From the IMG/VR virus record IMGVR_UViG_3300032070_000002, positions 1 to 64,000 of that record: a stretch of DNA of 64,000 nucleotides; one strand, 5' to 3'. Below are positions 1,324 to 16,109 of the stretch, in pieces (the first letter of the stretch is position 1; each line of letters begins with the position of its first letter). The notes below the pieces were generated by a model. The model saw nothing but the letters and a program-made list of their open reading frames with translations. It was not told the DNA's origin and did not search any database. The DNA comes from a virus. The translations under genes and the position numbers were made by a program.

Positions 1324-2307
1324 TTGAAAGTAATACTTTGGCCATATAAATATATTGATATGAAAGAATCTTGGTATCAGCAAATGATATGGTTGGCCGA
1401 AGCTTTTAAACTTAATAATATAGAGGTAAAGAAACATCCAAATTTTATATGTAAAGGTTTGGACTCTTTACCTCTATATAATTTTAGACAAGATAAAGAA
1501 GTAGATATTTGTATTTATAATCACGCAGCAATATTTCATTTAACCGGTAACATTTTAAAATCAAAAATGAATTTATTTTTTAAACCCACTATTCCAGATG
1601 AATTTCATACTACATTAGATAGCGAGGGCTATGGTCCCTTTTCTTCAATAACATTTAGGAAGCCTAATTTTGAAGAAATAAATAAAGAAGACGTAAAATT
1701 ATTTTTTGAAACAAAGGTTAAAAATTGGCTTATTAATAAAAATACAAAGTGGGGTAAGTATTTTGAGAATAAGGAAGAAGAAATAAATTTAAAGGATTAT
1801 TATTTAGTATTAGGACAAGTAGAAAATGACGAGGTGGTAAATAGAACGCATCCGGGAAGTTACTTATTGAAATTAAATTTAATTGTAAAAGAATTAAGTA
1901 AGTTAACAGATAAAAATATTGTAGTAAAATTACATCCGTATATGAATAATGCGGAAACAATAAAGATTAAATTAGAGGCTATAGATAAAAAAATAAGGGC
2001 ATTTACCGGTAAGATAAACGTTCATAGTTTTATAGAAAATGCAGAATGTATATTTTTAGCTAATTCGGGTAGCGGTTTTGAAACAATGATGCACGGTAAA
2101 CCTATTATTTCTTGGGAATATCCCGAATATCATTGGGTTACATATAATTTAACAAGAAAAGAAGATTTAAAAAAAGCTATAGAACTAAAATGGTTTGATA
2201 AAGAATTACAGGATAAATTTTTATATTGGTATTTAGAAAAATATTGTTTTTATAATCAAGAAACGGCAAGCAAAAGGGTAAGTGATATATTAAATGGTAG
2301 ACTATAA
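1324..2307 (+). CDS. Capsule polysaccharide synthesis (KpsS/KpsC-like) glycosyltransferase
   Basis: LGQVEND, VVKLHPY and NSGSGFETMMHGKPII motifs of the Capsule_synth family; TTG start with AAGGAG RBS. Confidence 0.7.
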   Translation: MKVILWPYKYIDMKESWYQQMIWLAEAFKLNNIEVKKHPNFICKGLDSLPLYNFRQDKEVDICIYNHAAIFHLTGNILKSKMNLFFKPTIPDEFHTTLDSEGYGPFSSITFRKPNFEEINKEDVKLFFETKVKNWLINKNTKWGKYFENKEEEINLKDYYLVLGQVENDEVVNRTHPGSYLLKLNLIVKELSKLTDKNIVVKLHPYMNNAETIKIKLEAIDKKIRAFTGKINVHSFIENAECIFLANSGSGFETMMHGKPIISWEYPEYHWVTYNLTRKEDLKKAIELKWFDKELQDKFLYWYLEKYCFYNQETASKRVSDILNGRL

Positions 2308-3550
2308 AGTTCCAGTATTAGAAAATTTTCAATGGCAAAAACCCGTAAAAGATAAAGATTTATCTACATCTCCGGGAGGAGAAGCAAAAGGAGATAGATA
2401 TATAGTAGCAACAATCGGTTCTGGCGCTTGGACAGGGCATACTGGCGATATAGCTTTATATAACGGAGCGACTTGGGAATTTATAACTAAAACTGAAGGA
2501 ATGGTAGCTTGGGTAGAAGATGAAAATTTACTATATATATTTAATGGAACTACTTGGATAACGCATAATTTAGATAAAATAACATATAATTTAATGTTAG
2601 CCTTCTTTAAAATATCTATTCAAGGAGGATTAGTAAAGTATAATTTAGTTGATGGTATAATGGATGAGTTTGAAGATGAGTCAGGAGTAGATGTAGGAAC
2701 ATCTACAAATGAAAGTTATGACGCAGTAAATGATTTATATAGTCCGTCTACTTCAGATATTCTAAAAGATAATAGGTGGGTAGCAGTAGATAATAGGGTA
2801 GGTTTAAGTAGAACTTTTTCTACTCTTTTAGCATATCCGGTCACTCCTTCTACTAGTTTTCCTTTATCAAAAATAGATATACAATTAAATAAAGTAAATA
2901 CGCCTACCGGAAATATGTGGGTTGAAATATGGAGTGATAACGGTAGCGACGATCCTTTAGCGCAGATAGGAATAGATAGTTCTATATTAGATGTTTCTAC
3001 GGTAGGTTCGGATACTACTCATACATTTACCTTTTCTACGCCTATTACGCTTATATCCGGCACAAAATATTGGATAGTTTTAAATGATAATAGAGGTACA
3101 GACGATGTTAATTATATTGAATGGTGCGGAAATATTGCTACATTAACTACTAAGGGTCATTATTACAATGGTGCGGTTTGGTATAATTGGAACGACGTTA
3201 CTTTTAATTATAAATTATATTCTATTCAAATAAATAATATGACTTTAGTTTCTAACGTTACTGTAGCAGAAGCAGTTCCAACTCGATCACGTATAGTAAT
3301 TATGGAAGAAGACGTAGATTCTATAAACATAAATACAGATTTAAAAGCATATATATCAAGAGATAATGGCTCTAACTGGACACAGCATACTTTAACAGAT
3401 GAGGGAGATTACGATACCGGGAAAAGGATTTTAGTTTCAGAAGCAATAGATATTTCCGGACAACCCTCTGGAAGTAATGTAAAATGGAAAGTAGAAACAC
3501 TTAATAATAAAGACCTTAAACTTCACGGCATAGGTTTAAATTGGAATTAA
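2294..3550 (+). CDS. DUF2793-like N-terminal domain fibre/receptor-binding protein
   Basis: N-terminus paralogous to 835..1299; beta-rich central domain; YISRDNG..W BNR-like motif. Confidence 0.65.
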   Translation: MVDYKVPVLENFQWQKPVKDKDLSTSPGGEAKGDRYIVATIGSGAWTGHTGDIALYNGATWEFITKTEGMVAWVEDENLLYIFNGTTWITHNLDKITYNLMLAFFKISIQGGLVKYNLVDGIMDEFEDESGVDVGTSTNESYDAVNDLYSPSTSDILKDNRWVAVDNRVGLSRTFSTLLAYPVTPSTSFPLSKIDIQLNKVNTPTGNMWVEIWSDNGSDDPLAQIGIDSSILDVSTVGSDTTHTFTFSTPITLISGTKYWIVLNDNRGTDDVNYIEWCGNIATLTTKGHYYNGAVWYNWNDVTFNYKLYSIQINNMTLVSNVTVAEAVPTRSRIVIMEEDVDSININTDLKAYISRDNGSNWTQHTLTDEGDYDTGKRILVSEAIDISGQPSGSNVKWKVETLNNKDLKLHGIGLNWN

Positions 3551-3885: not shown

Positions 3886-4884
3886 ATGAAAGAAACTGCA
3901 CACTTCTTAACCGATATTTATAAAACAAAATTTATAGATACGGATAGAGAAGAAAAGAGATTTGAATTAGTTTTAAATAAATACTTAAAAGCTTGGGAAA
4001 AACAAGTTCAAAACAATATTAATAAGAGATATAAAAAATCTCTTTCTTACAAGTCTTTATTTAAAGCGTTAGACCCTAAAGATATAGAAGCTATAGCAAA
4101 ATTTAGAGTAGGCGGCGCCTCAAAACGATTAGCTTCTTTAGGAGTAGCCGCAGCAAATAAAGGATTAGACCAAGCTTATAGAGATATGAAATTACTATTG
4201 TCTTGGAATATAGAAATGTCGCCTATAGCAGATTTTTATTTACAACATTATGACGAATTTACGGATTTACTTTCTACTAGTTTACAAGATAGAATTAAAA
4301 AAATTATAGCAAGATCGATAGAAGAGGGATTAACTACTACGGATGTTCATAAACAAATAAGTGAAACTTTTAGTCAACCTATAATTGTTTCGGTTCCAGA
4401 AAAATTAAGCGAAGAAGGTAAAACAATTAGAAGAGCTTATGAATATGAAATGAATAAAGACGTTTATACAACTATGGTAGCTAGAACGGAAATACAAAGG
4501 GCTTTAAATAACGGAAGGATATACGGTTACCAAGAAGCTAACATAGCAAAGAAATTAAGGTGGATAGCTAATCCCGGGGCTTGTGAGTTCTGTATAGAAA
4601 AGAACGGTGAAATATTTAACGTAGAAGAAACACAAGATTTAATTCCACTCCACCCAAACTGCAGGTGCACTTTCATAGTTAGCGAATATAAAACTTTTGA
4701 AGAATCTACGGAACCAATAGATTTATTTGATACTTCTAAAATAGTAACGGATCCAAACGGTATAGGCATTATGGATTTTATAAAATTAAGTAATGAGGAA
4801 TGCGATACCGTTATAAAAGAAATAGATAGTAAGGGATTAGATGTAGCTATGAAATTATTAAGAAGATTATCGGGAGGAAAATAA
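3886..4884 (+). CDS. MuF/SPP1 gp7-like minor head protein
   Basis: VARTE, W...ACEFC and PLHPNCRC motifs. Confidence 0.9.
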   Translation: MKETAHFLTDIYKTKFIDTDREEKRFELVLNKYLKAWEKQVQNNINKRYKKSLSYKSLFKALDPKDIEAIAKFRVGGASKRLASLGVAAANKGLDQAYRDMKLLLSWNIEMSPIADFYLQHYDEFTDLLSTSLQDRIKKIIARSIEEGLTTTDVHKQISETFSQPIIVSVPEKLSEEGKTIRRAYEYEMNKDVYTTMVARTEIQRALNNGRIYGYQEANIAKKLRWIANPGACEFCIEKNGEIFNVEETQDLIPLHPNCRCTFIVSEYKTFEESTEPIDLFDTSKIVTDPNGIGIMDFIKLSNEECDTVIKEIDSKGLDVAMKLLRRLSGGK

Positions 4885-5183
4885 TGTTAACTATTCAATA
4901 TATAATACCTGCGGATTATGATAGACAAAAAACGTTATTAGTAGCAGGTGTTTTAATAAAGAGTTTAGTAGAGATTATAAAGGATGTAAATAAAAATAAA
5001 GAGTATAGTCCTTCGGATTTTGTATTTTATCCACTTAATACTTTTCAAATTGCTAAAACAAAAAAGATGTTAATAAGCGGTAGGGGATTAGGTTTAAAAA
5101 TTTTAAATAAAATAGATACTAAATTTTTAGACACCTTAAAAGGAATAAATTTAAAAGTAAACAGAATGGAATTTAAAAAATGA
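4884..5183 (+). CDS. Hypothetical protein, head module
   Basis: 99-aa ORF translationally coupled on both sides. Confidence 0.6.
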   Translation: MLTIQYIIPADYDRQKTLLVAGVLIKSLVEIIKDVNKNKEYSPSDFVFYPLNTFQIAKTKKMLISGRGLGLKILNKIDTKFLDTLKGINLKVNRMEFKK

Positions 5184-7003
5184 CAAATTTCTTTCAATGT
5201 GAGGAATGTTTAAAGGAATTTATTTCTCAAGCAGATAAACTTTTTGTTTGTAAGTTTTGTAAGACAAGAGGAAGGGTAAAAAGAATAGAAATAAAACTAT
5301 CAAAAAATATTTCTGAATTAAAAGATAATCAACTTTTAGTTGAACATTATCGTATTCATAAATTATATAGTATGAATATGAAGTTAAAGAAAATGAATTT
5401 AAAAGAAAATATTTTTATAGACGAGATAAAAGAAAAACATAATAAGGTAATAGAAGAAATGAAAACACGAAAAATAATACATAAAGTTTTTAGTAAATTA
5501 GATTTAGAGAAGTACGGCACCTCAGAAGGTGCAATAAGAGCTTGGGATACCCGGGGAAGAGGCAGAAAAGAACCTGAGAAAAAAGAAAGAGTAAGAGGAC
5601 ATATAAAAGAAGTTACCACTAGACAGGGAAGAGTAGCGCAAATACAAGAAGATATTGATACTACGCCCGAAGTTGCTTGGGAAGTAGAAAAAGCTATTTC
5701 AAGTTTTACCGGTACCGGTTATAAGGATATAAGAAGATTACAAATAAATTCAACAATAGAATATTCTACGGATAAAGGAGATATAGAATACGGAAAATTA
5801 CTTGAAGAATATATAGATAAGGCCCCTAAATTTAATGAGCCAATATATAGAGGAATTTCTAATAAAGCTGCTACTGAAAAAATGAGAGCGGGAGATGTTG
5901 TAGATATGAAAGGAACTTCCTCTTGGTCAAGTGATGAAAATATAGTTGGAAGATTTGGATTAACAATTTTTAGAACAAAGAACCCGGGTAAAGCTACTTC
6001 TATTAGTCATTTAAGCGGTGAGAGAGAAAAAGAAGTTTTAGTTTCTAAGCAACAACGTTGGAGGGTAGTAGATATAAGTAGGGAAACTATTAATACGTAT
6101 CGTTCGGCCTCTTACACCGGCGTAAAAATGCAAGCGGAAGCAACTATGATTAGCGTAGAACCAATTATTAAAACGAAAAGTTTTGAATTAGAAATTAAGA
6201 AACAATTAAGGAATAATGTAATTAAGGATAGGATAGAATCCGATAAGTATTTAACTATTTATAGAGGCGATAAGATAGTATACGATTATCGAGGCCAACT
6301 TAATCCTAATCAAATTCCTAAACTACTTCCAAAACAAATTCTTAAATACGGCACCTCAGAAGGTGCTATAAGAGCTTGGGATACTCGGGGAAGAGGCAGA
6401 AAAACTGAAAACAAAAGAAGAGGTCAAAGAGTAGCGGTAGGTACAATATCTACTTTATCCGGAAAACAAATAATAATAGAAGCAGACGGAAAATTAATGG
6501 GAGATTATATAGATAAAGTTCAAGAAATGAAAGATGTAGCAGACGCTATAGGGGAAGCTACAGAGGATACTACTATAGTTAATTTACGAAATGAATTATT
6601 AAGGTTAGATATTGAAAGGACTTTTTTACATAATCAGGTAACTAATGAAGCTACTAAAAAAATATTAGAAAATCATTCGGAACTTAACGAATCGTCTTTA
6701 GATATAGTTGTAAGAAATAAAGTACAGAGTATGGCGGATAAGGTAATATCGCATACAAGTAAATCCTTTAAAGGCGTACAGAGTATTATAAATTCTTTAA
6801 TGGTATATAGTTATAAAAGTTGTCCTAAACAAATAAAAAAGAAAATTCAAAGAAGAATGTTTTTATACGAAGTTCAAAAGATGCAAACCGTACCCGAAAT
6901 GAGTCAAGAGATAAAAGCACCCTCTCAATTTGGACTTCCTAAGAAGAGTAAAAAGAAAGTACCGAAACAAATTCGTAACAGAAGAATAGAAAAGAGTAAA
7001 TAA
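5180..7003 (+). CDS. Multidomain head-associated protein with R-S-E ADP-ribosyltransferase domain
   Basis: IYRG, SSWSS and EKEVL motifs (VIP2/Alt-like); N-terminal CxxC..CxxC; duplicated YGTSEGAIRAWDTRGRGRK. Confidence 0.75.
   Translation: MTNFFQCEECLKEFISQADKLFVCKFCKTRGRVKRIEIKLSKNISELKDNQLLVEHYRIHKLYSMNMKLKKMNLKENIFIDEIKEKHNKVIEEMKTRKIIHKVFSKLDLEKYGTSEGAIRAWDTRGRGRKEPEKKERVRGHIKEVTTRQGRVAQIQEDIDTTPEVAWEVEKAISSFTGTGYKDIRRLQINSTIEYSTDKGDIEYGKLLEEYIDKAPKFNEPIYRGISNKAATEKMRAGDVVDMKGTSSWSSDENIVGRFGLTIFRTKNPGKATSISHLSGEREKEVLVSKQQRWRVVDISRETINTYRSASYTGVKMQAEATMISVEPIIKTKSFELEIKKQLRNNVIKDRIESDKYLTIYRGDKIVYDYRGQLNPNQIPKLLPKQILKYGTSEGAIRAWDTRGRGRKTENKRRGQRVAVGTISTLSGKQIIIEADGKLMGDYIDKVQEMKDVADAIGEATEDTTIVNLRNELLRLDIERTFLHNQVTNEATKKILENHSELNESSLDIVVRNKVQSMADKVISHTSKSFKGVQSIINSLMVYSYKSCPKQIKKKIQRRMFLYEVQKMQTVPEMSQEIKAPSQFGLPKKSKKKVPKQIRNRRIEKSK
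5513..5569 (+). repeat. 57-nt direct repeat, copy 1 (YGTSEGAIRAWDTRGRGRK)
   Basis: 55/57 nt identical to 6347..6403; both differences synonymous. Confidence 0.95.
6347..6403 (+). repeat. 57-nt direct repeat, copy 2
   Basis: Matches 5513..5569. Confidence 0.95.
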
Positions 7004-7037
7004 ATTGTTCTAAAAAGTGTTTTTATTATCAGAAGAG
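7001..7037 (+). promoter_or_regulatory. Candidate late promoter motif, copy 1
   Basis: TAAATT..TTCT..AAGTGTTTTTATT..GAAGAG shared with 9442..9474. Confidence 0.4.
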
Positions 7038-7043
7038 GAGATA

Positions 7044-8264
7044 ATGGAACAAAAATATTCCTATAATGGTTTACGTTTTAAATTTTATGCTCCTACTACT
7101 ATAAAATCTAATACGGAAGAGGCTTGGGTAATTAGAGGCTACGCCGCAACAAGCGATTTAGATAGACAGAACGATGTAATTTCTCCCGACGCTTTAAAGA
7201 AAGCTGCAGAAGAGTTAAAGAAAAATACTACGGTATTTTACGAACATAAACACGATCAGTTTCCTATAGGTAGGGTATTAGATACTGGCGTAGATAGTAA
7301 AGGTTTATGGGTAGAAGTTTTAATTAGTAAAACTGCAAAAGAAGTTTGGACTTTAATTGAAGAAGGTGTTTTAAATAAATTTAGTATAGGTGGGAAAGTA
7401 TTAAAAGCAGATTCTAAATACGATAAAGTTTCTAGTATAGGTTATAATTATATTACGGATTTAGAATTATACGAGATTTCTATTGTAGGATTACCCGCTA
7501 ATCCTAAAGCTTCTTTTTCAATTATAAGTGGTATTAAAAAAGCTTATTTAACACAAGAAAAATTACAGAATGTATTAGAAAAATTGGGGGGTGAAAAAAT
7601 AATGGCTATAGAGAAGAAAGATGATATTAAAACAGAACCTGTTATTGAGAAAAAAGAAGAGGTTATAGAAAAAAAAGAAGAACTTAAGCAGGAAGAGACT
7701 CCTAAAGTAGAAGAGAAAAAAGAAGAGGTAATTGAAAAGAAAGAGGAGTTAAAAGTAGAAGAACCTCTAATAGAAAAAAAAGAAGAAGTAATAGAGAAAA
7801 AAGAAGATTCTACTCCGGCTGAACCAATTGAGAAGAAAGAAGAGCTTAAAGTAAAACAGGAAGAACCCGTTAAGGAAGAAGAACCGGTAGAAGAATTTAT
7901 AGACTTAGAAGTGGAGTTAAAAGCTTTAAAAGACGCGTTAGCTGAAATATTAGTTGTTGTAAAAGACATACAAGCTAATATGAATAAAAAAGAAGAACCT
8001 AAAAAAGAAGAGGTTAAAGAAACAAAATTAGACCTTACCGGCGTTGAAGATATTATAATGAAAGCGTTAGATGTAAAGTTAGGTAAGATAAGATTAGTTC
8101 CTTCAAGAAAAGGTACTATAATTAAGATGGATGTTGATTTGAAAGATGAAGAGGTAAAGGACGGAGTAGATGTAATTTTAGACGAAGAGAAATTTAATGC
8201 TTTACCGAAAGAAAAACAGAAAGCATTAGTAAAGTCGTTTTTAGTAAATATTATAAAATCCTAG
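7044..8264 (+). CDS. HK97-family prohead protease fused to scaffold domain
   Basis: IRGYAAT..LDRQND, FYEH, FSIGG and LYEISIVGLPANP motifs; Glu/Lys-rich C-terminal half; ATG 7044 after GAGGAG preferred to GTG 7017. Confidence 0.92.
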   Translation: MEQKYSYNGLRFKFYAPTTIKSNTEEAWVIRGYAATSDLDRQNDVISPDALKKAAEELKKNTTVFYEHKHDQFPIGRVLDTGVDSKGLWVEVLISKTAKEVWTLIEEGVLNKFSIGGKVLKADSKYDKVSSIGYNYITDLELYEISIVGLPANPKASFSIISGIKKAYLTQEKLQNVLEKLGGEKIMAIEKKDDIKTEPVIEKKEEVIEKKEELKQEETPKVEEKKEEVIEKKEELKVEEPLIEKKEEVIEKKEDSTPAEPIEKKEELKVKQEEPVKEEEPVEEFIDLEVELKALKDALAEILVVVKDIQANMNKKEEPKKEEVKETKLDLTGVEDIIMKALDVKLGKIRLVPSRKGTIIKMDVDLKDEEVKDGVDVILDEEKFNALPKEKQKALVKSFLVNIIKS

Positions 8265-8293: not shown

Positions 8294-9325
8294 ATGTCTG
8301 ATATTAGAAAAGCGTTAGCAACAGCGGGCGATTTTAAAATTGATGATCCGTCGGGTGCTGGCTATTTGCCTAAACCTTTAGCTGACGAGATAGTTCGTTA
8401 TATAACTGAAATCAACTATTGTCGTTCATTATTTAGAACAGTTATTATGGCGAAGAAAACTTTAGATATTCCGGTTTTAACTTCTGGACGTTCTACTGCT
8501 GGTGCAGGAGTTTATTATGTGCCTACACAGGTAGATATTTCTGGAAAATCGGATCAGATCGGTCCTAAGTTACACGCAGTAAGACTAGAAGCTAAAAAGC
8601 TAATGGCTTACGCAAACGTAGATAACGATGATATCGAGGATGCCGCGGTTGACGTGGTAGATTTATTACTCGAGTCCTTCGGAGAAGCTTTTGCAGAAGC
8701 TGAAGAGTTAGCTATTATGGCTGGCGATGTCGGTTTTGGAACTGCGGACGATCCGAGGAAAGCTTTTGATGGTTTAGCTGAGTTAGCAGCGGATGCTTCA
8801 ATGGTACAGACAGGTGTCGTAGTTGAAACAGCTTCTGGTTCGCAAGAAATAAAAGGTATAGAGGAAACCATTTCTTTAGGTATAAAGAAATTGGCTAAGT
8901 ACGGAAGAAATAGAGCGAAGTTAGTTTGCTTTATTGATTCTACTATTGCTGAATATTTAAGGCGTTCTCGGAGGTTAGTTAGAGAGACCTGGCTGGAAGG
9001 TGGCCGCAATGCTGAAGGTGCTTCTACCGAACCCGGAATGGCTGACAAGCTTTACGGAGTTGCAACATATGAATCTGCTTACATTGACTACGTAAAAGCG
9101 GGCAACAAAGGCGCGGTAGGTACCGGCATTCTTGTTCCAAAAGATGAACCCTTAATTGGTGATAGGCGTAAAATAAAGATAGTTAAGAAAGAGTTAGAGG
9201 AACACGATAAAATCCGTTTTGTTATAAGTGAAAGAATTGACTTCACAGTAAGACACAAAGCTTATAACTCGGGTATGGCGGGCAATGCTGAAGCTGTTTG
9301 CTTACTTAAATTTAACCTAAGTTAA
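8294..9325 (+). CDS. Major capsid protein (HK97 fold)
   Basis: GAGYLP..LADEI, LEAKKLMAY and ERIDF motifs; follows the protease; strong RBS and downstream terminator. Confidence 0.92.
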   Translation: MSDIRKALATAGDFKIDDPSGAGYLPKPLADEIVRYITEINYCRSLFRTVIMAKKTLDIPVLTSGRSTAGAGVYYVPTQVDISGKSDQIGPKLHAVRLEAKKLMAYANVDNDDIEDAAVDVVDLLLESFGEAFAEAEELAIMAGDVGFGTADDPRKAFDGLAELAADASMVQTGVVVETASGSQEIKGIEETISLGIKKLAKYGRNRAKLVCFIDSTIAEYLRRSRRLVRETWLEGGRNAEGASTEPGMADKLYGVATYESAYIDYVKAGNKGAVGTGILVPKDEPLIGDRRKIKIVKKELEEHDKIRFVISERIDFTVRHKAYNSGMAGNAEAVCLLKFNLS

Positions 9326-11638: not shown

Positions 11639-11896
11639 ATGGCAGCTGCTTCATATTCGGTTAAAAAGTTTGGTCAAGGTCAGACAGTAACTGACTTAAA
11701 AAAATACTATTTATTAGAGTGTACTGTAAGTATAAGTGATACAATTACCGTAGCGGAATTAACGGCTGTTACCGCAGCAACAATCTATAATCTTTCTACG
11801 GCTGCTATTATTACTTGTACGGTAGGAACAAATATTATTACGGTTACCGGGGCTGCAACAAGTGTAAAAGTTGTAGTTATAGTTTTAGGAACATAA
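11639..11896 (+). CDS. Small virion (decoration-like) protein, paralog B
   Basis: Shares GQTV.DLKKYYL.E.TVS...TIT.AELT with the previous gene. Confidence 0.55.
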   Translation: MAAASYSVKKFGQGQTVTDLKKYYLLECTVSISDTITVAELTAVTAATIYNLSTAAIITCTVGTNIITVTGAATSVKVVVIVLGT

Positions 11897-11921
11897 AAAT
11901 AAATTTTAAGGAGGTGTAAAG

Positions 11922-12290
11922 ATGGATTATAAGTTTTCAGTAGGCAAAATAGCAATAGGTAGCGGTACTGCAATAGCTACTTGTACGGGAATTACGGTTA
12001 GAACCGACGGCGGTCCGGTAGAGTTTAGAGGAGGCGATTACCGTCTTCCTATGTGGATAGAGTTAGGAGCTAAATCGGTAGAAATTACTATAGAATCTGC
12101 AAAGTTTGATACCGACCCTTCTGAAATGGATAACGCTTATATTACTTTAACGTTGTCTACCGGTAATGAAGGCGGCGGCTTAGCGGGAACCATAACTAAC
12201 TGTAAAGTAATTTCTTACGAGGTTAGACAAACGCAGGATGCTTTCGTAGTTAGCACGTTAGTTTTAAGAAGAGCTGAAAATCCGGCGTAG
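11922..12290 (+). CDS. Probable tail tube protein (minimal, 122 aa)
   Basis: Precedes the chaperones and tape measure; beta-rich; AAGGAGGTG RBS. Confidence 0.6.
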   Translation: MDYKFSVGKIAIGSGTAIATCTGITVRTDGGPVEFRGGDYRLPMWIELGAKSVEITIESAKFDTDPSEMDNAYITLTLSTGNEGGGLAGTITNCKVISYEVRQTQDAFVVSTLVLRRAENPA

Positions 12291-12305
12291 TTAATTATAG
12301 TTGTT

Positions 12306-12374
12306 TGAAAGAGAACTTAGGAGAACGGTTTACTAGGATACCGTTTCTAAAAATATAACCTAAGTTCTCTTTCA
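12306..12374. other. Intergenic RNA structure with a perfect 16-bp outer stem and inner hairpin
   Basis: tgaaagagaacttagg/cctaagttctctttca; inner agaacggt/accgtttct. Confidence 0.8.
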
Positions 12375-12394
12375 TTACTTAATTGGAGGATATA

Positions 12395-12685
12395 ATGGAA
12401 GATAGAGTTACTACGGTTAAAAAAACTATTTTATTAGCTGACGGTAAAGAATACGAAGTAAAACCTCTTTCCTTAAAAGCTACAAAGAATTTACTACCTA
12501 CCATTAAAAAGTTAGATGAACTTAAGGCAAAAGAAGGCGTTACGGAAGGATTAATAGATATAATGGCAGATATTTGTTTAGAAATTTTACAACCTACTAA
12601 TTCCGATTTAACTAAAGAAAAAATTTATGAAATTATGGAATTAGGTACAGTATATAAATTACTATTTATGGCTATGGGTAGTTAA
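12395..12685 (+). CDS. Tail assembly chaperone (G-like)
   Basis: LADGKEYEVKPLSL motif; synteny; GGAGG RBS before ATG 12395. Confidence 0.7.
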   Translation: MEDRVTTVKKTILLADGKEYEVKPLSLKATKNLLPTIKKLDELKAKEGVTEGLIDIMADICLEILQPTNSDLTKEKIYEIMELGTVYKLLFMAMGS

Positions 12686-12689
12686 TTAA

Positions 12690-12983
12690 ATGTATGAAAT
12701 AGAATGGTATTCAATAGTAGATATTTTAGCAAAGGAATACGGTTGGACCATAGAATATATTAGTAATCTTCAAACTATTGAAATACGCGAGTTAATAAAA
12801 GAAATTAATAAAAGAAAAGTTAATGAATATAATACTTTATGTTATATAATAAATTGTGCGTTAACAGGTAAACAACCGCAATTAGGTAAACATTCAAAAA
12901 ATAGTTTACCACAAACAGAAGAAGAAGCTTTAATAAGTTTAATGAAAAAAGTAGGCGGTAAGGTAGAAAAAGGAAAGAAGTAA
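12690..12983 (+). CDS. Tail assembly chaperone (T-like)
   Basis: LAKEYGWTIEYI..L motif; directly precedes the tape measure gene. Confidence 0.7.
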   Translation: MYEIEWYSIVDILAKEYGWTIEYISNLQTIEIRELIKEINKRKVNEYNTLCYIINCALTGKQPQLGKHSKNSLPQTEEEALISLMKKVGGKVEKGKK

Positions 12984-12984
12984 A

Positions 12985-14802
12985 ATGACTCTTAAAGAAT
13001 TAATAGTAGTATTTAAAATAGATGCTAATCAACTTAAAGTAGGAATACAAGAAGTAAATAAAGCCTTAGACGGTTTATCTTCTGTAGTAACAGGTACGGC
13101 TAATAAAATTTCCCAAGGGTTTCATAATACATTATCTGCAATATTTAATTTGAAAACTGCTTTAGGAGCCTTATTAGCGGGACTATCTTTAAATGCGGTA
13201 ATAGGCGAAGCTAGTAAGTTTGAAGAAAGTATTTTAAGAGCTTGGAGACAAGCTTCTGATGGCGCTCTAAATGCGGGTCAAAGTTATGAAAAGTTTAAAC
13301 AAACTGCGGTAGATGTAGCTTCTTCTTCTATATTTAGTGCTAATCAAGTAGCTAATGCTATGAAGGTAATAGCTGACCGCGCTAGAACTGTTGCTCAAAC
13401 TCAAGAAGAAGTAGCGTGGGCAACAAAATTAGCTCAAGCTTCCGGTGAGGACTTAGGAACTTCCGCGGATGCCGTTTCTCGTATTATGATGATATTTGAG
13501 AAACAAAATATGACATCCGCTCAAGCAGCTAATTATTTAGCGGTATTAATGGATAAAGGCGCAGTTTCTTTAGGTGATTTAGGAATGGCTTTTCGTTCTT
13601 TATTTCCTATGGCTGCAGCTATGGGCTGGCAGTTTAAAGATATAGCTTCAGTTTTAGGAGTATTATCTACTAAAGGAGTTGAAGGTTATAGAGCTATTTT
13701 TGCATTACAGAGTATATTAGACGCTGCAATAGATCCTTCTAAAGGTTTAGGTAAAGAGTTAGCAGATGCCGGCGTTCAAATAGTAGATTCTTTTGGTAAA
13801 GTTAAAGGAGTGTTAGAAATAGTAGATAGTATGAAAAGATTAGGATGGACGACCTCAGACGTATATAAACATTTCGGCGTTCAAATGGGTACTGTCTTTT
13901 CTACAATGTTAGAAACGGGTTCCGATGCTTTTAGTAAGTTTAATTCTGCAATGACTAATTCTTTACACGGCTCTGAAACGTATGTAGATAAACAATCTGA
14001 AATTTTTCAAAAAAGTTTACCCGGAGTATTAACAGATTTTACAAATACCGTTAATACTTCTTTTAAAAAGATTGGAGATGATGTAGGAGCGGTTTTAAAA
14101 CCCATAATAGATTTATTTAAAACGTGGATAGAAAAAACAGTTGAAGCTATTGATAAATCAGATGTATTAAAAAAAGTAGGGGAAGAGTTAACTAAAGCTT
14201 TAGCACCTTTACAAGATAAATTATTAGAGTTAACGGACCAATTTATTAAATGGTTATCTACTTTAACTGCAGAAGATATAGAAAAAGGATTAAACGGTTT
14301 TGCGGATGGTATAAATTCTATAGCATCTGCTATAGCTTCTATACTTCCCGGAATAGAAAAATTAGCGGGTTTAATTAAGTTTATTGTAGATAACGCGGGC
14401 GTATTAACGGGCGCGTATATAGGAGGTAAGGCCGCCGGCCCGGTAGGAATGGTAGCAGGTGCCGTAGGCGGTGGTTTAATACAAGAAACCATTAAAGCAA
14501 AAAACGTTAGTCAAAGTCCAGAGTATCAAGCTTATAAAGAAAGTGGCGGTAAAATAGGCCCGGGCCTATGGAAAGAAATGGTAGAAATGGGCACTTTAGG
14601 TAAAATACAAACGGAACTTCAAACTAATAATAGTTTAGGAGAGCAAGTTAAAGCAATAGGTCAAAGTACGATTACTTCGGTGGATAAAAATGGAAAAGTA
14701 ATTGTAGAAACGTTAGAAAATTTAATGAAAAAAATAGATACTAATACTTCGGATATAAATAGTTTAAAAATAAGAGCAAGTACTAATCAAAAAAATAGGT
14801 AA
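12985..14802 (+). CDS. Tail tape measure protein (TP901-like)
   Basis: Ala/Gly-rich helical protein with a PhageMin_Tail-like central region. Confidence 0.9.
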   Translation: MTLKELIVVFKIDANQLKVGIQEVNKALDGLSSVVTGTANKISQGFHNTLSAIFNLKTALGALLAGLSLNAVIGEASKFEESILRAWRQASDGALNAGQSYEKFKQTAVDVASSSIFSANQVANAMKVIADRARTVAQTQEEVAWATKLAQASGEDLGTSADAVSRIMMIFEKQNMTSAQAANYLAVLMDKGAVSLGDLGMAFRSLFPMAAAMGWQFKDIASVLGVLSTKGVEGYRAIFALQSILDAAIDPSKGLGKELADAGVQIVDSFGKVKGVLEIVDSMKRLGWTTSDVYKHFGVQMGTVFSTMLETGSDAFSKFNSAMTNSLHGSETYVDKQSEIFQKSLPGVLTDFTNTVNTSFKKIGDDVGAVLKPIIDLFKTWIEKTVEAIDKSDVLKKVGEELTKALAPLQDKLLELTDQFIKWLSTLTAEDIEKGLNGFADGINSIASAIASILPGIEKLAGLIKFIVDNAGVLTGAYIGGKAAGPVGMVAGAVGGGLIQETIKAKNVSQSPEYQAYKESGGKIGPGLWKEMVEMGTLGKIQTELQTNNSLGEQVKAIGQSTITSVDKNGKVIVETLENLMKKIDTNTSDINSLKIRASTNQKNR

Positions 14803-14807
14803 ATAGA

Positions 14808-15188
14808 ATGGCGGTACTATCTAGAGTAACTTATAACGGTGAATTTTTAGGCGATTACGCTTTTGTAAACATAGATTTTGTAGGTAATACTACTGTAAGA
14901 ATTATTCCGAGAGCTTTAGGCGTAAAAATATATGCTACCGAAGAGCTAGGCGGCGGACAATTAATTTTTAAAGTAAGATTAGTAGTATTAAAAACAAGTA
15001 GACAGGATATAGTAAAATATCAAGAAAGTCTTTATCAATTAGGAAACGGCCCCTCAGATTTAGTAGTATATGATAAGACAGGCTTAAATCCGGTAGTTTT
15101 TGAAGACTGTTATTTAAATAAAATTTCTTCTCCATCCGAAGACGAGTTATGGTCTTGGATAGATATAGAATTAACTAAAAGTATTTAA
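14808..15188 (+). CDS. Probable distal tail protein
   Basis: First gene after tape measure; beta-rich. Confidence 0.4.
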   Translation: MAVLSRVTYNGEFLGDYAFVNIDFVGNTTVRIIPRALGVKIYATEELGGGQLIFKVRLVVLKTSRQDIVKYQESLYQLGNGPSDLVVYDKTGLNPVVFEDCYLNKISSPSEDELWSWIDIELTKSI

Positions 15189-15203
15189 TAAGGAGGTTTA
15201 GAT

Positions 15204-15692
15204 ATGGCTGCTACAATTACCGTAATTAAAACGTATGGAGCTCCCGCGGGTTCAGAAGCAACGGTAACTACTCCGGGACTAATAGCTTCGGATGATAACG
15301 CAGACCCCGTAGATTCTAAGTTAATAGTTCCTTCAGTTAACCCGGTATATAGCTATGAATGCTGGCTTAGATTTAAGTGTACCGTAGCTCCTGATAATAC
15401 TTGCGAAAATTTTAAGATATGGAGTTCCGGAGCCTCCGTAGGAACGGGCTTAACTATAACGGTTAATAGTGATGCAGTTGCAGTTTATGCTCAACCGGTT
15501 AATACGGAATCGGCTCAAGGCACAAGAGTAGATTTTTCTACTAAAGATTCGGGAGATAAGATAAGTGTAGCAGGCGATTTAGTAGACCCGGATGATAAGA
15601 CAGATTTTTCTGTATTTCAAATGAAAGTAGAAAATACCGCAGGCGCAGGAAATAAAACATATACAGTTTATTATTCGTATGATGAATCTTAA
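15204..15692 (+). CDS. Virion structural protein
   Basis: YSYECWLRF motif and C-terminal YSYDES; strong RBS; tail region. Confidence 0.5.
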   Translation: MAATITVIKTYGAPAGSEATVTTPGLIASDDNADPVDSKLIVPSVNPVYSYECWLRFKCTVAPDNTCENFKIWSSGASVGTGLTITVNSDAVAVYAQPVNTESAQGTRVDFSTKDSGDKISVAGDLVDPDDKTDFSVFQMKVENTAGAGNKTYTVYYSYDES

Positions 15693-15719
15693 TACAATAT
15701 TAAAAAGGAGACCAATACA

Positions 15720-16109
15720 ATGGAAAAATATTATTGGTTAATAGAATTTAGTAACGGTGAAAAGTTATGTCAGTTTAATGAAGATAAAACAGAAAATAAA
15801 ATAGATTTTATTTTCCTACAAAATCATACCCCTTTCGTATTTCATTTAATTCCTACCGTAGAAAACTTACCGATTATAAAGATTTTAATAGATAATGATA
15901 AGAGGTTAATATATTTTCGTAAAAGAATAGGCGCTTTTACTTTTGGTATAAATAAAAAAGATGATAAAAATAAGTTATTACAAACCCTTTTTGTATGCGG
16001 ATGGCAGAAAACTATAAATAATATTAATATAAAAAATTTAATGTGGATAGATACAGAAGGAAATATATTATATAATTGTGACGATTTAAGTATTAAAATA
16101 GAGGAATAA
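15720..16109 (+). CDS. Hypothetical tail-region protein
   Basis: 129-aa ORF with RLIYFR and GWQK motifs. Confidence 0.5.
   Translation: MEKYYWLIEFSNGEKLCQFNEDKTENKIDFIFLQNHTPFVFHLIPTVENLPIIKILIDNDKRLIYFRKRIGAFTFGINKKDDKNKLLQTLFVCGWQKTINNINIKNLMWIDTEGNILYNCDDLSIKIEE

Follow-up and report, generated by a model that had tools for sequence, protein, structure and literature searches.

Introduction

In phage T4, a portable capsid targeting sequence (CTS) marks proteins that are packaged into the head and injected, among them an ADP-ribosyltransferase (PMC9026906, PMC5694885). Here we analyse a viral gene in which one short peptide stands twice, each time in front of a different domain of the same protein. 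The gene (5180-7003, + strand) lies in the first 64,000 nucleotides, hereafter the window, of IMG/VR record IMGVR_UViG_3300032070_000002, a 90-kb viral contig from a sediment metagenome with an estimated completeness of 78%. Its open reading frame translates without a stop into 607 amino acids (aa), and we refer to the repeated peptide as the tag. On the strength of sequence comparison we propose, with moderate confidence, that its product is a polyvalent cargo polyprotein of the head module and that the tag is a combined cut-and-address signal.

The CTS of T4, carried by IPI-III and Alt and removed by gp21, is likewise a short peptide before unrelated cargo, and it combines targeting residues with an L/I-x-E site. 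The likeness extends to the gp21-type phage of the tag family, which has exactly [LIV]-x-E before the tag. The two differ in that the CTS is 10-20 aa long, strictly N-terminal and discarded, whereas the core of the tag lies downstream of the predicted cut and would remain on the cargo. The tag is also reiterated within polyproteins, is common to phages with S78, S77 and Mu-type proteases, and to our knowledge has no sequence resemblance to the T4 CTS peptides. By analogy the tag would work like a T4-type CTS, and we do not count it as a member of that group.

The protein studied here resembles substrates of HK97-type proteases in that an S78 protease gene adjoins its own, and in the HK97-like phage phi12 such substrates carry Lys or Arg at P1 (PMC8569155). 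Those known so far, however, are scaffolds and the delta domains of capsid proteins rather than enzymes in a row. We know of no header motif common to HK97-type protease substrates. Encapsulin cargo-loading peptides are, like the tag, short, conserved and disordered, and address diverse enzymes into an HK97-fold shell; unlike the signal proposed here, they are usually C-terminal, have an unrelated sequence and are uncoupled from proteolysis.

Polyvalent proteins, as described in the main texts of PMC5512222 and PMC9503650, are multi-effector proteins whose genes lie among those of the virion and which are joined to, or neighbours of, MuF, portal or an assemblin-like peptidase. ADP-ribosyltransferases (ARTs) are their commonest enzyme according to the same texts, and their packaging and injection were predicted from genomics; the main text of PMC5512222 credits their processing mainly to embedded metallopeptidases. 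The window protein joins at least two unrelated domains, including a conflict-type enzyme (zinc ribbon, ART and helical bundle), and it sits among virion genes, with MuF upstream and an S78 protease and capsid gene downstream, relatives being fused to MuF or portal. The signature polyvalent domains InPase, PBECR2, ART-PolyVal and zincin peptidase also occur in tag-bearing proteins. Head-packaged polyvalent effectors and the T4 CTS are already known. A conserved junction or header peptide is absent from the main texts of PMC5512222 and PMC9503650, and a full-text literature search for the motif strings returned no relevant paper. In this literature, which for polyvalent proteins comprises those main texts, we found no description of a header reiterated before cargo modules across protease families.

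A repeated peptide precedes two unrelated domains

The features of the protein are as follows, with a slash marking the predicted cut and Phi a hydrophobic residue; model confidence is given as the predicted local distance difference test (pLDDT) of AlphaFold2.

5180-7003, + strand: 607-aa head-module cargo (polyvalent) polyprotein, as proposed from context, homology and the AlphaFold2 model
5180-5479, + strand: N-terminal domain (residues 1-100), a CxxC...CxxC zinc ribbon with two helices, pLDDT about 77
5501-5569, + strand: tag copy 1 with upstream Phi-x-K, DLEK/YGTSEGAIRAWDTRGRGRK, in a disordered linker (pLDDT <50) with a short helix at 116-124
5597-6169, + strand: predicted ADP-ribosyltransferase domain of the R-S-ExE class, from Foldseek, catalytic motifs and homologue P0002
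6335-6403, + strand: tag copy 2, QILK/YGTSEGAIRAWDTRGRGRK; the surrounding linker is disordered and has a helix at 394-402
6422-6757, + strand: second cargo domain (residues 415-526), a beta-hairpin and three long helices, pLDDT about 90 (80-92)
6878-7000, + strand: second linear motif, KMQTVPEMSQEIKAP, and basic end (...RRIEKSK, about 25 basic residues), shared with homologues

The segment KYGTSEGAIRAWDTRGRGRK is present twice in the protein. The 19-aa peptide YGTSEGAIRAWDTRGRGRK begins at Tyr112 and again at Tyr390, and the residue before it is Lys both times (LEK/Y and ILK/Y), as an earlier reading made from the sequence alone, hereafter the sequence-only reading, had pointed out. At the DNA level the two copies (5510-5569 and 6344-6403) are identical at 57/60 nucleotides when the Lys codon is included and at 55/57 across the 19 codons, and none of the three differences changes an amino acid. 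If these 20 residues had been encoded twice independently, simulation with the codon usage of the genome leads one to expect differences at 12.2 +/- 2.6 sites, and three or fewer differences arose in 5/100,000 simulations (P about 5e-5). The 60-nucleotide flanks of the copies are 22% and 43% identical. Since 3 differences are seen against 12.2 expected, next to diverged flanks, both copies derive from a recent common DNA ancestor with sharp borders. The whole 90-kb record contains two tags, both in this protein.

The 607-aa protein was modelled with AlphaFold2 (mean pLDDT 70). Its N-terminal domain places the zinc-ribbon cysteines at Cys7, Cys10, Cys24 and Cys27 and has homologues, joined to other cargo, in P0003, P0004, P0007, P0008 and at L002:1872-3485; it is a conserved 'frame' part of the polyprotein. 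Tag 1 lies in a low-confidence linker (residues 103-135) and so does tag 2 (residues 368-414). Residues 140-330 form a confident alpha/beta domain (pLDDT 80-94), followed by a helix and a hairpin. A Foldseek search with these residues gave Vis, C3bot, CDTa, C2-I, VIP2, Tre1 and ExoS/T as the best solved matches (E about 1e-8). The catalytic residues, YR224G, GTSS245-248 (Thr-Ser-Ser246-248) and Glu283-Lys-Glu285, are kept in P0002 and P0003. In its fold, and in its Arg, Ser-Thr-Ser-like and Glu-x-Glu motifs, the domain agrees with C3/VIP2/Alt-like R-S-ExE ARTs, from which it differs in scoring below the Pfam thresholds. The 607-aa protein gave no Pfam match, even at E <= 10, while P0002, a 41% identical homologue, passes PF01129 and PF03496. 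As the Pfam threshold is missed, it is the modelled fold, the motifs and this transitive homology that make domain 140-330 a predicted R-S-ExE ADP-ribosyltransferase. The fold model and motifs thus bear out what the sequence-only reading had said of the two copies, that the first precedes an R-S-ExE ART and the second an unrelated helical domain.

Homologues of the second cargo domain stand behind a tag in the ligase-bearing proteins P0005, P0006 and P0010, and also in P0106; a fold search with this domain gave no significant match. Residues 527-607 are modelled as a basic disordered tail. Its motif, KMQT[EV]PEMSxEIKAP[ST]Q, also ends P0003, P0004 and L002:3487-4161, and in P0005, P0006 and P0106 a tag follows it immediately. 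Judging by these positions, the tail motif may be a module-end signal. Self-cleavage at G-T-S was considered and rejected, the tags lying in disordered linkers with no fold to strain the bond.

The tag is widespread and heads varied modules

A first homology search with the protein returned many matches that were 60-80% identical but spanned just 4-7% of the query, and the Pfam domains of the matched proteins differed widely. When 1.84 billion representatives were searched with a profile of the tag, 36 columns long, 628 clusters of proteins matched at E <= 1e-3. Tag-bearing proteins range from 70 to 3397 aa and usually have one to four confident copies, with six in P0048 and up to eight, from weak to strong, in P0055 (3397 aa). 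One match, P0064, was discarded as a false positive, an unrelated repeat protein. The consensus reads [LIVM]-x-[A/K/N...]-[Y/A/S]-G-T-S-E-G-[AV]-x-[KR]-[AG]-W-[DE]-[TS]-R-G-R-G-[RK]-[KH]. Across diverged copies in 33 proteins, six residues are invariant and four nearly so. In distant versions the RGRGRK tail is gone and only GTSEGAxKAWE[ST]R is left.

The sequence-only reading had taken the peptide for a basic tag, a DNA-binding or ejection signal. A basic DNA-binding tag is not what the family as a whole shows, and DNA binding as its general role is unsupported because the distant cores, stripped of RGRGRK, are near-neutral. For the same reason, the missing basic tail in distant versions, we rejected an AT-hook-like DNA tag as a general property. 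Pfam, PHROGs and NCBIfam contain no model of the tag; short PF22129 (CjCas9 wedge) matches on its start were treated as chance, no stretch threshold being passed. Searching species genomes with a degenerate DNA pattern of the tag gave 12 loci, mostly in Verrucomicrobiota, and a scan of species genomes with a longer query, whose patterns lay outside the tag, gave no match.

We counted tag positions in 161 tag-bearing proteins. Of these, 45% have their first tag no further than 30 residues from the start, frequently preceded by a leader of some 10 aa (MNLxxTIxLxAY, for example), and 95% extend for at least 68 aa beyond the last tag. The median spacing from tag to tag is 206 aa. Tags thus stand at the N-terminus or between domains and hardly ever close to the C-terminus, which supports the view that the peptide heads modules; both window copies are internal to the polyprotein.

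The search of protein databases for the domains that follow the peptide, which the sequence-only reading had suggested as a check, revealed very varied cargo. Behind the tag we found ARTs, GNATs, an ATP-dependent ligase, methyltransferases, PI3/4-kinase-like domains and a cytidylyltransferase, as well as InPase, zeta toxin, a HipA-like kinase, a 2H phosphoesterase and the PBECR2 nuclease; most of the modules behind the tag belong to no known family. In front of the tag, MuF occurs in P0021, P0048 and P0055, and portal in P0046 and in the Mu-type portal-tag-PBECR2 fusions of the L013 group.

These fusions (L013:6264-8525; P0216, P0218, P0223 and P0235) belong to prophages of Akkermansia muciniphila, A. 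massiliensis and A. glycaniphila, and one cluster of them has 400 members on 121 contigs. At L013 a Mu-like protease match lies just downstream of the portal fusion, at about 8745-9296 in locus coordinates. In P0212 (L011:7482-8429) the tag is found in a Mu-like head protease, about 15 residues past the catalytic domain and followed by a basic low-complexity tail, so that the protease itself bears the same header as the cargo. The HK97 protease bears a targeting part of its own, to which the tag behind the protease domain of P0212 is comparable.

Tagged genes also come in arrays, with four consecutive ones at L001, L030 and L032. The four in a row at L001:7896-11725 all have His two residues before the GTSEG core, and two of them have HExxH. 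A 120-kb phage (G002) has at least seven tagged genes with about eleven tags; there (L005:798-3057 and 11799-16079), several glycosyltransferases and a C-methyltransferase are interspersed among the cargo genes.

Cargo is exchanged at one slot of the head module

The gene order around the polyprotein gene is MuF, a 99-aa open reading frame (orf99), the cargo gene, S78 protease/scaffold and capsid.

3886-4884, + strand: MuF-like minor head protein (PF04233 at 6e-11, phrog_115)
4884-5183, + strand: orf99, sharing a base with the MuF stop and overlapping the cargo start by 4 nucleotides
7017-8264, + strand: prohead serine protease (S78, HK97 type) fused to a scaffold-like C-part (PF04586 at 9.5e-17, phrog_80 at 5e-30)
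8294-9325, + strand: HK97-fold major capsid protein (PF05065)

The sequence-only reading had placed the gene between MuF and the prohead protease. The protease does adjoin it downstream, but orf99 separates it from MuF. No match to orf99 was found in Pfam or PHROG. It stands at the same site in L002 and L004 (40-43% identity) with different cargo, and it may be an assembly factor; a role as an immunity protein specific to the ART was rejected, as orf99 is kept in relatives that carry methyltransferase cargo. The S78 protease at 7017-8264 is the presumed processing enzyme of the cargo polyprotein.

Comparison with the related loci L002, L003 and L004 revealed that MuF, orf99, protease and capsid are 40-72% identical to those of the window, and 40-84% with the downstream genes counted in. 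The window MuF is 53% identical to that of L002 and L004, and the window capsid protein 72% identical to those of L002 and L003. Between orf99 and the protease, by contrast, their cargo differs from that of the window, for example the N-terminal domain with a methyltransferase. P0003 and P0004 share the N-terminal domain and the C-terminal tail of the window protein and have different modules between them, and P0101 is a stand-alone protein of leader, tag and ART. Blocks of homology with P0003, P0004, P0101, P0106 and P0006 start or stop at tags. The exchange in the slot, the ends of the blocks at tags and the near-identity of the two window copies at the DNA level together support the idea that tags bound exchangeable cassettes, in keeping with the proposal of the sequence-only reading that the repeats could serve as recombination points of a modular cassette.

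Three other observations concern these loci. At L002:7938-9988 an extra cassette, whose first gene encodes a tagged protein of 268 aa, separates head-tail connector genes that directly neighbour each other in L003 and in the window. In the window protease-scaffold protein, the C-terminal half is of low complexity and rich in Lys and Glu, and (P)VIEKKEE(V/L) units recur in it (about aa 200-290). Just upstream of MuF, window positions 1324-3550 encode a capsule-polysaccharide-synthesis-like protein (PF05159) and a DUF2793 tail-fibre-like protein, an unusual location for such genes, in or beside a head module.

The residue before the tag and the type of head protease

At position -2, where the window copies have Lys, the family has A in 152 copies, K in 94, N in 18, S in 10, G in 7 and D in 7; a preceding Lys, noted by the sequence-only reading for both window copies, is thus not a general feature. 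Position -4 is L/I/V/M in 94%. Copies within one protein agree at position -2 in 83% of pairs, compared with 34% between proteins. On the same scale, the unconstrained flanks of the tag are about 10% identical within and 8% identical between proteins, so that recent duplication does not explain the uniformity at -2. Lys and small residues are never mixed at this position in the multi-copy proteins (0/85). By these comparisons position -2 behaves like a lineage-specific determinant. Pure drift in base composition was rejected as the source of the K versus A split, since few residues are allowed and no protein mixes K with small residues.

We then compared this residue with the head protease. 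In phages with an S78 protease (the window and L002-L004), 6/6 copies read Phi-x-K-Y. In the phage with a PF03420 protease (T4 gp21-type, S77), 5/5 copies read [LIV]-x-E-[ES], for example KLHE/E, RIHE/S and EVFE/S; these Glu-type sites correspond to the gp21 consensus L/I-x-E, with the predicted cut after position -2. The Mu-like_Pro group has L-x-N-Y before the tag. T4 gp21 and its relatives in giant phages cleave after Glu in a short motif (PMC9026906, PMC5694885), and phi12, an HK97-like phage, carries K or R at P1 (PMC8569155). Because the residue at -2 fits the protease family, and the literature agrees for two of the three, K111/Y112 and K389/Y390 are the likely cuts that we predict for the head protease, as the sequence-only reading had proposed. 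The sequence I-K-K/A-Y also occurs at the very end of the window protease domain, with I-Q-K-A-Y in L002. This is weak evidence because Phi-x-K tripeptides are common here.

Discussion

The proposed reading, a cargo polyprotein with a repeated cut-and-address signal, would work as follows. The polyprotein would be made late and join the procapsid together with MuF, the protease-scaffold and the capsid protein. Within the disordered linker, the nearly invariant core GTSEGAxxAWDTR would dock, as a short amphipathic helix, to a conserved component of the procapsid interior. The neighbouring S78 protease, to judge from the comparison of lineages, would cut at the lineage-specific Phi-x-P1 site, that is at L-E-K/Y112 and I-L-K/Y390. 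These cuts would release the N-terminal domain, the ADP-ribosyltransferase and the helical-bundle protein, the latter two starting with YGTSEG.... The freed cargo would remain in the head and accompany the DNA into the host, and there the transferase, like Alt of T4, may modify a host target.

We regard as established the anatomy of the protein, the ART fold with its catalytic triad, the position of the tag before modules, the exchange of cargo in the slot and, in three lineages, the agreement of the P1-like residue with the protease family. Several observations nevertheless weigh against the proposed mechanism. The protease correlation stays at three lineages, since IMG/VR scans for Glu-type and Lys-type tags gave no further lineage, and the five Glu-type copies, whose leaders are paralogous, do not count as independent. 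Base composition could account for some of the K versus A split, although the classes differ modestly in composition, and Phi-x-K tripeptides are frequent in the Lys-rich proteome of the window. A tblastn search of 50,697 deposited phage genomes with the protein, its tag region and P0016 gave no match, and the tagged array of L001 lies upstream of a baseplate J gene, outside the head module. The near-invariant core of about 20 residues exceeds what a protease site needs, and it is for this reason that we infer a docking role. Four complete or near-complete genomes with A- or H-type tags (G001, G002, G006 and G007) gave no S77, ClpP, S49 or phrog_80 match, and G001 and G002 gave no S78, S78_2 or Mu-like_Pro match either. 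Finally, HExxH is present in 38/246 tag-bearing proteins where about 4 are estimated by chance, an excess of about ten-fold.

These last points bear on the alternative that survives best, which we consider rather unlikely on balance: that the tag is an address or docking element only, and that processing falls to another enzyme or another time, for instance to a tagged, co-packaged zincin metallopeptidase, or does not take place. Because HExxH is enriched, including in the genomes that lack a recognisable head protease, a co-packaged metallopeptidase is a serious alternative. Carriers of HExxH include the tagged arrays of G001 and G002 (L001 and L005) and P0004, the frame-mate of the window protein, and P0040 has an ATLF-type peptidase domain behind its tag. 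Metallopeptidases were indeed proposed as processors of polyvalent proteins by Iyer et al. (main text of PMC5512222). Four near-complete tag-bearing genomes have no recognisable head serine protease, and the Mu-type protease has the tag right behind its own catalytic domain, as expected of an address. HExxH is, however, absent from the window polyprotein, whose gene is followed directly by that of an S78 protease. Moreover, the residue at -2 fits the serine-protease family wherever that can be identified, down to the exact gp21 consensus, and cargo fused to portal or MuF should need no address and yet retains the tag.

Less probable still, and in our view improbable, is that the tag acts in the infected cell, as a linear motif that brings effectors to a conserved host component or nucleic acid (a DNA-binding or ejection tag). 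A partner that does not co-evolve with the phage would fit the near-invariance of the core among phages with unrelated head proteins and proteases, and the tag does end in RGRGRK in the clade of the window. But distant tags have lost their basic tail, and what is left of them, GTSEGAxKAWE[ST]R, is near-neutral; the tag also stands behind a head protease domain and a portal, neither of which is an effector; and the lineage-specific upstream residues would go unexplained. That the tag is a leftover junction of cassette recombination or a structural spacer without a signal, in proteins that are not in virions, seems very improbable, for although the window copies are near-identical in DNA with sharp borders, homology blocks stop at tags and some tagged genes lie outside head modules, a scar would neither keep six invariant and four nearly invariant residues across 33 proteins with fully diverged flanks nor persist at the N-terminus of hundreds of single-domain proteins, and the MuF, portal and head-protease fusions link the tag to the head.

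How phages apart from T4 select the proteins that are carried in the head and injected has long been unclear, and comparative work predicted head-packaged effector polyproteins without a rule for addressing or cutting them. If the proposed cut-and-address reading is true, a header with a protease-matched site would be such a rule: cargo would be predictable directly from phage sequence, exact cleavage positions would be given, and the exchange of cassettes between phages would be explained. The portal-tag-nuclease prophages of Akkermansia provide a culturable system for the tag. More tentatively, and as a possibility that we rate as less likely than not, GTSEG...W..R may be a portable cargo header common to hundreds of lineages with unrelated proteases, the core binding one conserved feature of the head interior, the DNA or the portal channel, and the three upstream residues being re-tuned for each protease. 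If this is true, the header would be a general rule for the loading and release of injected enzymes in many uncultured phages, and a ready handle to package chosen proteins into phage heads.

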